Positions 53,643 to 56,112 of a stretch of DNA of 64,000 nt are shown in pieces. The translations under genes were made by a program, and so were the position numbers. Every line of letters begins with the position of its first letter. The first letter of the stretch is position 1. The stretch lies in NCBI RefSeq assembly GCF_054482525.1, contig NZ_CM137006.1; one strand, 5' to 3'. The notes beneath the pieces are model-generated. The model ran no database searches, had not been told where the DNA came from, and saw only the letters and a list, made by a program, of their open reading frames with translations.

Positions 53643-54533
53643 CTAGCGCGTTCGCTGCGAATGCACCTGCTGCTTATCCAGCTTTTGCACCAGCGGCTGC
53701 ACCACTTTATCCCCATGCTGACCAAAGTATTGATACAGCGTATCGGACGCACTTTTGGTCAGCACCATAATCTCAATGCGTCGGTTGCCCGCGCTTTGCG
53801 GATTTTTCGCGTCCAGCAGCATCTGGTCCGCCATCGCGCTCACCTGCATCACTTTATCTTCCGGCATTCCGGCCTCTTCCAGCACCCGACGAGCCGAAAG
53901 CGCGCGATCGCCCGAAAGGTTCCAGTTGTTGTAGATATTGTTTTTGTAGGCCATCGCATCGGTATGCCCGGTAATAATAATTTTGTTATCGAGCGAGTCG
54001 AACACTGGCGCGAGCTCCACCAGCAAAGTTTTAAAGAACGGCATAATCTGTGCGCTGCCGCGTTCAAACATATTGCGGTTCTGGTCATCTTTAATCAGCA
54101 CGCGCAGTCCCTGGGGAACAATCTCCATCTCCAGATTCGCTTCCATATGTGCATCACGGGCAATGGTGTTGATACTGGTCGCCAGCTCGCCAAGCTCAGT
54201 GGCTGATTTCTTCTTCAGCAGCGCCGTTTTCTCATTGACGTCACGCGCTTTTTTCTCCGTCTCTTCCGGCACCGCCACGGTGGCAGGTTTTGGCGGATGA
54301 GACGGGCTGATTTTATTTAACGGCGACAACCCGCCGCCATTGAAAATCGACTGCCCGTGCAGCGCGGCGATAATGCTTTCACGCTCGGATTTACTGACGC
54401 TGTTGACAATCAACTTTATCGTCGTCACCAAAGGGGCCGAGCGTATTTCCGAGGTTTCTGCCCGCTTTACCTTAGACGCGATGCCCGGTAAACAGATGGC
54501 GATTGACGCCGATCTTAACGCTGGGTTGATCAA
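53643..54533 (-). pseudogene. lafU: Flag-2 lateral flagellar motor MotB-like relic (lafU)
   Basis: OmpA/MotB-like C-terminal domain present but N-terminal TM segment absent; 5' end runs into the lfhA fragment. Confidence 0.6.
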
Positions 54534-56112
54534 CCAGGCGCAGGCGCAAACCCGGCGTAAAGATGTTGCCAGCGAGGCCGATTTCTACGGCGCGATGGAC
54601 GGGGCATCGAAGTTTGTGCGCGGGGACGCCATCGCCGGGATGATGATTCTGGCGATCAACCTGATCGGCGGCGTCTGTATCGGCATCTTCAAATACAACC
54701 TGAGCGCCGACGCCGCCTTCCAGCAGTATGTGCTGATGACCATCGGCGACGGGCTGGTGGCGCAGATCCCGTCCCTGCTGCTCTCCACCGCGGCGGCAAT
54801 TATCGTCACCCGCGTCAGCGACAATGGCGATATCGCCCATGACGTGCGCCACCAGCTGCTGGCAAGCCCGTCGGTGCTCTACACCGCCACCGGGATCATG
54901 TTTGTGCTGGCGGTGGTGCCGGGGATGCCGCATCTGCCATTTTTGCTGTTCAGCGCCCTGCTGGGTTTTACCGGCTGGCGGATGAGCAAACGCCCGCAGG
55001 CGGCGGAGGCGGAGGAGAAAAGCCTCGAAACGCTGACCCGCACCATCACCGAAACCAGCGAGCAACAGGTCAGTTGGGAGACTATTCCGCTGATCGAACC
55101 CATCAGTTTAAGCCTCGGTTACAAACTGGTGGCGCTGGTCGATAAAGCGCAGGGTAACCCACTCACCCAGCGTATTCGCGGCGTGCGGCAAGTGATATCC
55201 GACGGCAACGGCGTGCTGCTGCCGGAGATCCGTATTCGGGAAAACTTCCGCCTCAAGCCCAACCAGTACGCCATATTCATCAACGGCATTAAGGCCGATG
55301 AAGCGGATATTCCGGCGGATAAACTGATGGCCCTGCCCTCCAGCGAAACCTACGGCGAGATTGACGGCGTGCTGGGGAACGACCCGGCGTACGGGATGCC
55401 GGTCACCTGGATTCAGCCTGCGCAGAAAGCGAAGGCGCTGAATATGGGGTATCAGGTGATCGACAGCGCCAGCGTGATTGCCACCCATGTGAACAAGATT
55501 GTCCGCAGCTATATTCCTGATTTGTTTAACTATGACGATATTACTCAGCTGCATAACCGTTTGTCGTCGATGGCACCGCGACTGGCGGAAGATTTGAGCG
55601 CGGCGCTCAATTACAGCCAGTTGCTGAAAGTGTACCGCGCGCTGCTGACCGAAGGCGTTTCCCTGCGCGATATCGTCACTATCGCCACCGTGCTGGTCGC
55701 CAGTAGCACAGTGACCAAAGATCATATCCTGCTGGCGGCCGATGTGCGCCTGGCATTGCGGCGCAGCATTACCCATCCGTTCGTTCGCAAGCAGGAGCTG
55801 GCGGTGTATACGCTGAATAATGAACTGGAAAATCTGCTGACCAACGTGGTGAATCAGGCGCAACAGGGCGGGAAAGTGATGCTCGACAGCGTGCCGGTCG
55901 ATCCGAATATGCTCAACCAGTTCCAGAGTACGATGCCGCAGGTAAAAGAGCAGATGAAAGCGGCGGGGAAAGACCCGGTGCTGCTGGTGCCGCCGCAGTT
56001 GCGTCCTTTGCTGGCGCGTTATGCAAGGTTGTTTGCGCCGGGGTTGCATGTGCTGTCGTATAACGAAGTGCCGGACGAGCTGGAGTTGAAGATTATGGGG
56101 GCGTTGAGTTGA
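54340..56112 (+). pseudogene. lfhA: Flag-2 FlhA-homolog relic (lfhA), N-terminally truncated
   Basis: FlhA-like sequence lacking the first roughly 100 residues of the TM domain. Confidence 0.65.

Follow-up and report, generated by a model that had tools for sequence, protein, structure and literature searches.

A base-exact Flag-2 deletion scar found on many Escherichia coli haplotypes and in several enterobacterial genera

Positions 53643..56112 of the window, by which we mean the whole 64,000-nucleotide stretch of contig NZ_CM137006.1 (assembly GCF_054482525.1) that was analysed, are a deletion scar of the Flag-2 lateral-flagellar cluster, in which the truncated genes lafU′ and lfhA′ stand head to head as they were left by one deletion. 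The reading as a whole, in which this is the scar of a single deletion, its two dead stubs have only recently parted from intact alleles, and the same scar sits on many haplotypes and in different genera, we regard as very probable. The surrounding gene order is yafP, yafO, yafN, dinB, the scar region, yafL, dpaA, yafJ and lpcA (Table 1), and across this region the window is 100% identical to E. coli SCU-102, in which PGAP annotates lafU as a gene of 261 aa and the FlhA homologue as a pseudogene ‘missing N-terminus’. The features that define a Flag-2 scar were all found here: the site between dinB and yafL, 5′-truncated lafU and lfhA in head-to-head orientation, no Flag-2 gene between them, and a junction identical to that of K-12.

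Table 1. Coordinates of the Flag-2 deletion scar and its neighbours in the window
Feature	Coordinates	Strand	Remark
dinB	52517..53572	-	conserved left neighbour of Flag-2 locus or scar
lafU′, 3′ fragment of the lateral-flagellar MotB homologue	53643..54411	-	codons I53-R307 and stop
Read-through of the lfhA frame into antisense lafU	54340..54408	+	non-LfhA
Deletion junction	54409..54411	none	ATC common to both parent genes
lfhA′, 3′ fragment of the lateral-flagellar FlhA homologue	54409..56112	+	codons I131-S697 and stop
Read-through of the lafU frame into antisense lfhA	54412..54533	-	non-LafU
yafL (C40 peptidase)	56274..57032	-	conserved right neighbour of Flag-2 locus or scar

The region was compared with five intact Flag-2 loci (L003 and L011-L014) and with that of the reference strain 042 (NC_017626.1). 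In a blastn comparison with L003, window positions 53000..54414 matched the lafU side (97.6% identity) and 54400..56166 the lfhA side (96.4%), and the two matches were collinear with the intact locus. When the sequences are placed in register, the perfect match to lafU ends at 54411 and that to lfhA begins at 54409, and the junction is therefore the ATC that both genes share. This ATC sits within a patchy 9-of-12 similarity (CTGtTGAcaATC / CTGaTGAtcATC). Alignment to an intact locus had been proposed as the check on the original prediction, and the alignments to L003 and 042 duly mapped both endpoints of the deletion to this trinucleotide, at lafU codon 52/53 and lfhA codon 130/131. The genes between lafU codon 52 and lfhA codon 131, about 40 in number, are absent from the window. 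In the alignment to 042 the missing stretch corresponds to 286386..322390, about 36.0 kb, with the junction at the same position, and in the alignment to L003 (LCP30S3_I5) it amounts to 38.4 kb; the gap is longer in L003 because this locus carries extra restriction-modification cargo. The junction had the same position in all 8 scar alleles first compared, and the window aligns across it without a gap to K-12 (L004), O157:H7 and six other scar genomes. The earlier statement that the Flag-2 cluster had been reduced to truncated lafU and lfhA, as in K-12, is thus borne out by two collinear arms, one junction and the gapless alignments.

The two open reading frames listed for this region, ORF 1 (53643..54533, minus strand, 296 aa) and ORF 2 (54340..56112, plus strand, 590 aa), overlap at 54340..54533, and the original prediction took this overlap of the fragments as an indication of the deletion. 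The overlap consists only of read-through of each frame past the junction and has no evidential value; the true homology overlap between lafU and lfhA is 3 bp. The GTG at 54428, chosen by PGAP as the start of the 261-aa ‘LafU’, lies inside the lafU-frame read-through, and the lfhA-frame read-through contains an in-frame ATG 12 codons upstream of I131.

Which parts of the two proteins were lost can be read from the intact genes, which encode a LafU of 307 aa (L003 6246..7169) and an LfhA of 697 aa (L003 45027..47120). LafU residues 1-52 are gone, including the single hydrophobic helix (residues about 33-53) and the aspartate of the FADF motif, just as had been predicted for the transmembrane helix of the MotB homologue. 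The only Pfam match in the lafU′ ORF is the OmpA-like domain (residues 155-248); MotB_plug (PF13677) is found in full-length LafU and is missing from scar-type LafU′, in which the OmpA-like peptidoglycan-binding domain is kept. The stub thus lacks both the N-terminal helix with its aspartate and the plug region that a functional MotB-type stator contains. For the FlhA homologue, the claim that the N-terminal membrane segment is missing holds for residues 1-130, which by hydropathy comprise the first helices and most of the fourth; the membrane domain as such is not wholly lost, in that lfhA′ retains the later predicted helices and the cytoplasmic domain. Accordingly, the lfhA′ ORF matches positions 99-656 of the 657-position FHIPEP profile and so lacks the N-terminal part, and its membrane domain is incomplete at the N-terminus compared with that of a functional FlhA/FHIPEP export gate. 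Both stubs are 3′ ends in divergent orientation and have therefore lost their native starts and promoters. Alternative starts restore neither a full-length FlhA homologue nor a full-length MotB homologue, since the missing codons are not present in the window.

The contiguous scar was found in 4071 of 5426 complete E. coli genomes, and in the same set the lafT/lafU-5′ side of the cluster was found in 1324 genomes and the lfhB/lfhA-5′ side in 1291. From these counts, about 99% of the genomes that have no cluster carry this very scar. The sequence of the window allele itself is a rare variant, with only 3 records at 99% identity or higher. The lfhA-lafU deletion has been described in Escherichia, Shigella and other Enterobacterales (De Maayer 2020, PMC6993521), and that article cites Ren et al. 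2005 for the deletion in E. coli. The K-12 scar, with the pseudogenes lfhA/fhiA and lafU/mbhA (Ren 2005, as summarised in PMC6993521), has the same site, genes and orientation as that in the window and aligns with it gaplessly at the junction. Compared with this K-12 type, the window allele is the rare variant just mentioned and is without the flanking rayT, hicAB and dinJ-yafQ islets of other strains. The intact Flag-2 locus, which is related to the lateral flagella of Vibrio parahaemolyticus and Aeromonas, is carried by E. coli 042, E. coli W and about 24% of E. coli in all, and both arms of the window are collinear with its outermost genes at 96-98% identity. The original finding, its ‘overlap’ excepted, is in essence correct and already known.

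What the structure of one scar does not reveal is how its alleles relate to the intact ones. Among the E. coli scar and intact alleles compared, there were no fixed differences between the two classes. Over the lfhA arm, the scar allele of SA31-1 and the intact allele of 2010C_3902 differ at 0 of 1701 bases, and over the lafU arm the scar allele of K_EC180 differs from the intact allele of LCP30S3 at 1 of 769. We also built synthetic scars, that is, deletion products made by joining the arms of intact alleles. The product built from J2 equals real scar genomes at 2470 of 2470 bases, and those from 2010C_3902 and EC444 match real scars at 99.9% and 99.2%, respectively; the haplotypes of these three intact strains are 3-5% apart. 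Z1323CEC0019, which has the scar, and 2010C_3902, which is intact, are near-clonal over about 60 kb (0.05-0.07% divergence), and this comparison revealed no foreign SNPs near the junction. No difference separates MB51 (scar) from J2 (intact) over 3.5 kb that take in both arms, and the two diverge beyond that stretch. In the tight clade of the 2010C_3902 type, the intact allele nests among scar alleles, and a derived silent change is common to the intact allele and two scar alleles and missing from a third scar group, which implies either at least two conversions within this clade or one very local recombination. Further 2010C-type scar alleles proved to be the same allele as that of RM7190 and contributed no added mutations. 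Because scar and intact alleles are interleaved in this way, the idea of a single vertical history is doubtful. The single deletion that was originally proposed is therefore upheld as a description of the structure, with its one junction, and is probably not a description of the history.

The same scar occurs outside E. coli. When one genome per species was scanned with a degenerate pattern for the junction, matches were obtained in E. albertii, Cedecea sulfonylureivorans, Citrobacter sp. MGH106, three Atlantibacter species and Kluyvera ascorbata, and in all of these non-E. coli matches LafU begins at residue 53 and LfhA at about residue 131, head to head. The arms are each genus’s own, with protein identities to E. 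coli of 81-92% for LfhA and 57-78% for LafU and with dS values against E. coli near or above 1. In five of the non-E. coli scar taxa the arms are open to the natural stop; in E. albertii (L015) the lfhA′ arm gives two overlapping alignment segments and a prematurely ending open frame, as a frameshift would produce. The protein database contained the scar-type LafU′ N-terminus (...TT[I/M]KL|IVNSVS) in several Citrobacter and Kluyvera species, in Atlantibacter and in a Cedecea-like strain, together with full-length LafU in the same species. Within species, the lafU arms of scar and intact alleles are 98.4% identical in K. ascorbata and 99.7% identical in A. subterranea, in both cases identical next to the junction, and in Kluyvera and Atlantibacter species-specific bases stand 3, 6 and 18 bp from the junction. 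The scar is thus present on many haplotypes and in several genera, each with its own flanks. As an observation on locus layout, an Enterobacter-like metagenome contig (L030) carries lafU, then an NlpC/P60 gene and then a convergent full-length FHIPEP gene, so the two outer ends of the cluster are neighbours there, in a layout unlike that of E. coli.

How might one junction have come to lie on so many backgrounds? A single old junction could have been carried from one background to another by homologous recombination, and DNA from intact donors would then have replaced the arms of scar alleles precisely to the border of the deleted segment. We give this combination of recombinational spread and arm overwriting about an even chance. 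It is favoured by a SNP-poor zone that extends from -66 to about +8/+60 around the junction, and it needs crossovers within about 66 bp on the left and 8-60 bp on the right, or the replacement of an arm exactly to the junction. Recombination is evidently intense around dinB-yafL: the arms are finely mosaic, with poorly correlated divergence in adjacent 385-bp blocks, and mean dS is 0.14 for dinB, 0.27 for yafL and 0.17 for lafT, against 0.03 for gpt about 5 kb away. Divergence on the two sides of the junction is poorly correlated, which on its own could suggest a hot spot for recombination breakpoints, but the same holds throughout the mosaic arms.

Alternatively, the base-exact deletion may recur de novo, independently in numerous E. 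coli lineages and other genera, by way of a hot spot or of an as yet unrecognised excision activity that acts on conserved sequence in lafU and lfhA; we hold this explanation tentatively and at less than even odds. Several observations argue for such recurrence: scar alleles are identical or nearly identical to intact ones on at least three deep haplotypes, the near-clonal pair of scar and intact genomes is free of imported SNPs, one tight clade has an intact allele in the midst of scar alleles, and about 99% of cluster-less E. coli share one junction. The same junction codons are found in Kluyvera and Atlantibacter with the species-specific bases so close by, the endpoint sequence is conserved at the nucleotide level across genera, and a stable hairpin of 8-9 bp (z = -3.9) has the lafU endpoint in its loop. 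Against it stands the scarcity of anything that could direct the event. The microhomology is only 2-3 bp across 36-38 kb; local alignment of the two ends (+/-150 bp) gave direct-repeat scores at the level of chance, and nothing there resembles a shared recombinase site. In site-specific excision matching recombination sites would be expected at both ends, and these ends share 3 bp. By annotation, none of the core genes of the five intact loci encodes a recombinase, and rayT adjoins lfhA in some strains only. The mosaic arms also count against de novo recurrence, in that they show how active recombination is here, as does the weakening of the hairpin in K. ascorbata, which still has scar alleles.

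Three candidate sequence features at the ends were examined and set aside. The hairpin at the lafU end of the deletion holds up in E. coli, but its conservation does not extend to all scar taxa, and we do not retain it as the cause of a hot spot. The 22-of-27 inverted match (p about 0.01) that lies a little way inside the two ends is explained by similar Gly/His-rich peptides. An 8-bp inverted repeat flanking the scar (ACGCTCGG / CCGAGCGT) results from ‘ER’ dipeptides that occur in both proteins, and other genera do not conserve it.

De novo recurrence best fits the cross-genus data, though no mechanism for it was found. That base-exact excision has been repeated in E. coli lineages and has happened independently in Citrobacter, Kluyvera, Atlantibacter, Cedecea and E. 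albertii is possible, although we lean against it; if true, it would imply a sequence-directed deletion hot spot or an unrecognised excision activity. Loss-of-function alleles of rpoS are a useful comparison, as rpoS null alleles in E. coli are recurrent and polyphyletic within the species. Like them, Flag-2 loss occurs on many backgrounds and is young on each, and it is the functional state that holds the long-term diversity. Unlike them, the Flag-2 loss allele is base-identical on every background and in several genera, which ordinary recurrent mutation does not predict.

The condition of the stubs at first seems at odds with their loss of function. No stops or frameshifts were found in the 255 + 567 codons of 8 E. 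coli scar alleles, both frames are open to the natural stop in 10 of 11 E. coli scar alleles examined, and they are likewise open in Citrobacter, Kluyvera and three Atlantibacter species. Nei-Gojobori dN/dS among scar alleles is 0.029 for the lfhA arm (mean dS 0.22) and 0.034 for the lafU arm (dS 0.14), the same as among intact alleles. Taken alone, the open frames and low dN/dS would suggest selection. We therefore considered only recent mutations, by taking scar alleles nearly identical to an intact allele and counting the mutations that are unique to the scar side and derived. These comprised 5 missense, 1 nonsense and 3 silent changes, only 9 independent events, against 23 missense and 209 silent changes among old shared polymorphisms; the two spectra differ (Fisher p = 1.2e-4, with n = 9 recent events), and the recent one fits the neutral expectation of 0.71 / 0.27 / 0.03 (n = 9). 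The nonsense mutation is a GAG-to-TAG change in lafU′ of Z1323CEC0019 (L026 9489, corresponding to window position 54131) and, with one other change, is all that separates this scar allele from the intact allele of the near-clonal 2010C_3902. Because the stubs have lost their own starts, promoters and key membrane segments, and because new mutations accumulate in them as if neutral, we infer that they are non-functional pseudogenes, the sample of recent mutations being small (9). Each scar allele would have parted recently from an intact, selected allele, and the variation now seen in the stubs would have been filtered while the genes were still whole, leaving open frames and a dN/dS of about 0.03. 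The stubs may look healthy, in other words, because each scar allele has only recently been separated from an intact one.

It is very unlikely, in our view, that the stubs are instead domesticated, functional truncated genes maintained by purifying selection. Such a role would accord with the open frames of most scar alleles and of five other genera and with a dN/dS of 0.02-0.05 between Atlantibacter species at dS 0.3-0.8, but the recent scar-derived mutations are mostly missense with one nonsense, and the lfhA arm of E. albertii looks frameshifted. In Atlantibacter, the scar is present in all three species representatives, between which dN/dS is as low as 0.02-0.03. No Flag-2 locus is listed for this genus in the table of De Maayer 2020 (PMC6993521), and a genus with the scar only would have been proof of selection; a protein search, however, found full-length LafU in A. 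subterranea, and the argument from low dN/dS therefore fails. Where intact alleles occur in the same species, as they do there and elsewhere, a scar allele can owe its low dN/dS to its intact past. In most taxa there are candidate start codons a short way upstream of the junction, but in Citrobacter sp. MGH106 the 18 open codons that precede I131 include neither ATG nor GTG nor TTG. With regard to expression, one cross-linking study reported a short LafU peptide, against which lafU has been reported to lack detectable expression (PMC8824477) and promoter-like sites are not above chance (4 found, 1.8 +/- 1.2 expected). A new promoter created at the junction was also considered, as a TTGACA sits there, but the scan gave no site above chance.

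The textbook reading, in which one ancestral deletion has been inherited vertically ever since while the stubs slowly decayed, explains the identical junction everywhere and is the interpretation reported in the literature (PMC6993521), but it is hardly credible given that scar and intact alleles share haplotypes up to the junction, that a neutral fragment at dS of about 0.2 would be expected to show many stops and a dN/dS near 1, neither of which was seen, and that the same junction occurs in genera whose arms are at dS above 1 yet open.

Apart from the scar, the dinB-yafL neighbourhood (52517..57032, compared across L003-L014) is unusually diverse and mosaic in E. coli. Between the lfhA stop and yafL lies a GC-rich palindromic repeat of roughly 100 bp (56133..56236), copies of which are present in several intergenic gaps of intact Flag-2 (L003 near 18.4, 20.7, 30.9 and 40.7 kb); Rfam gave sub-threshold hairpin matches only, on the repeat at 56146..56228. 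In 56113..56273 the window is without the rayT or hicAB that other E. coli have between lfhA and yafL, and in 57033..57323 it is without the dinJ-yafQ that others have between yafL and dpaA. The content of both gaps varies, with toxin-antitoxin pairs and the REP transposase gene as the insertions. A second scar is apparent at about 50510..51064, where prfH is frameshifted and N-terminally truncated beside a short RtcB-family fragment (according to PGAP for the identical strain); a full rtcB-prfH is present in other strains. Many of the ‘intact’ Flag-2 clusters (L011, L012, L003 and L045) carry inactivating lesions of their own, namely an internal stop in the sigma-54 activator gene in J2, a frameshifted fliF in EC444, a frameshifted lysine-N-methylase gene in LCP30S3 and a frameshifted flgC in strain 042. 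In L003, genes for a DNA cytosine methyltransferase and a type II restriction endonuclease are inserted between flgA and flgM (26191..28908).

Like 75% of E. coli, the strain from which the window derives is marked by the scar as having no lateral flagella, and the feature is routine here; ‘pseudogene fragment’ is the proper annotation for both ORFs. The single aspect that merits further attention is the recurrence of the scar over haplotypes and genera, with stubs that are only seemingly conserved. Open frames and low dN/dS are no proof of function if a dead allele is repeatedly re-derived from, or overwritten by, a live one of the same population. Considering that the deletion spans 36-38 kb, its base-exact recurrence poses a testable puzzle as to how large deletions arise and spread in enteric bacteria.
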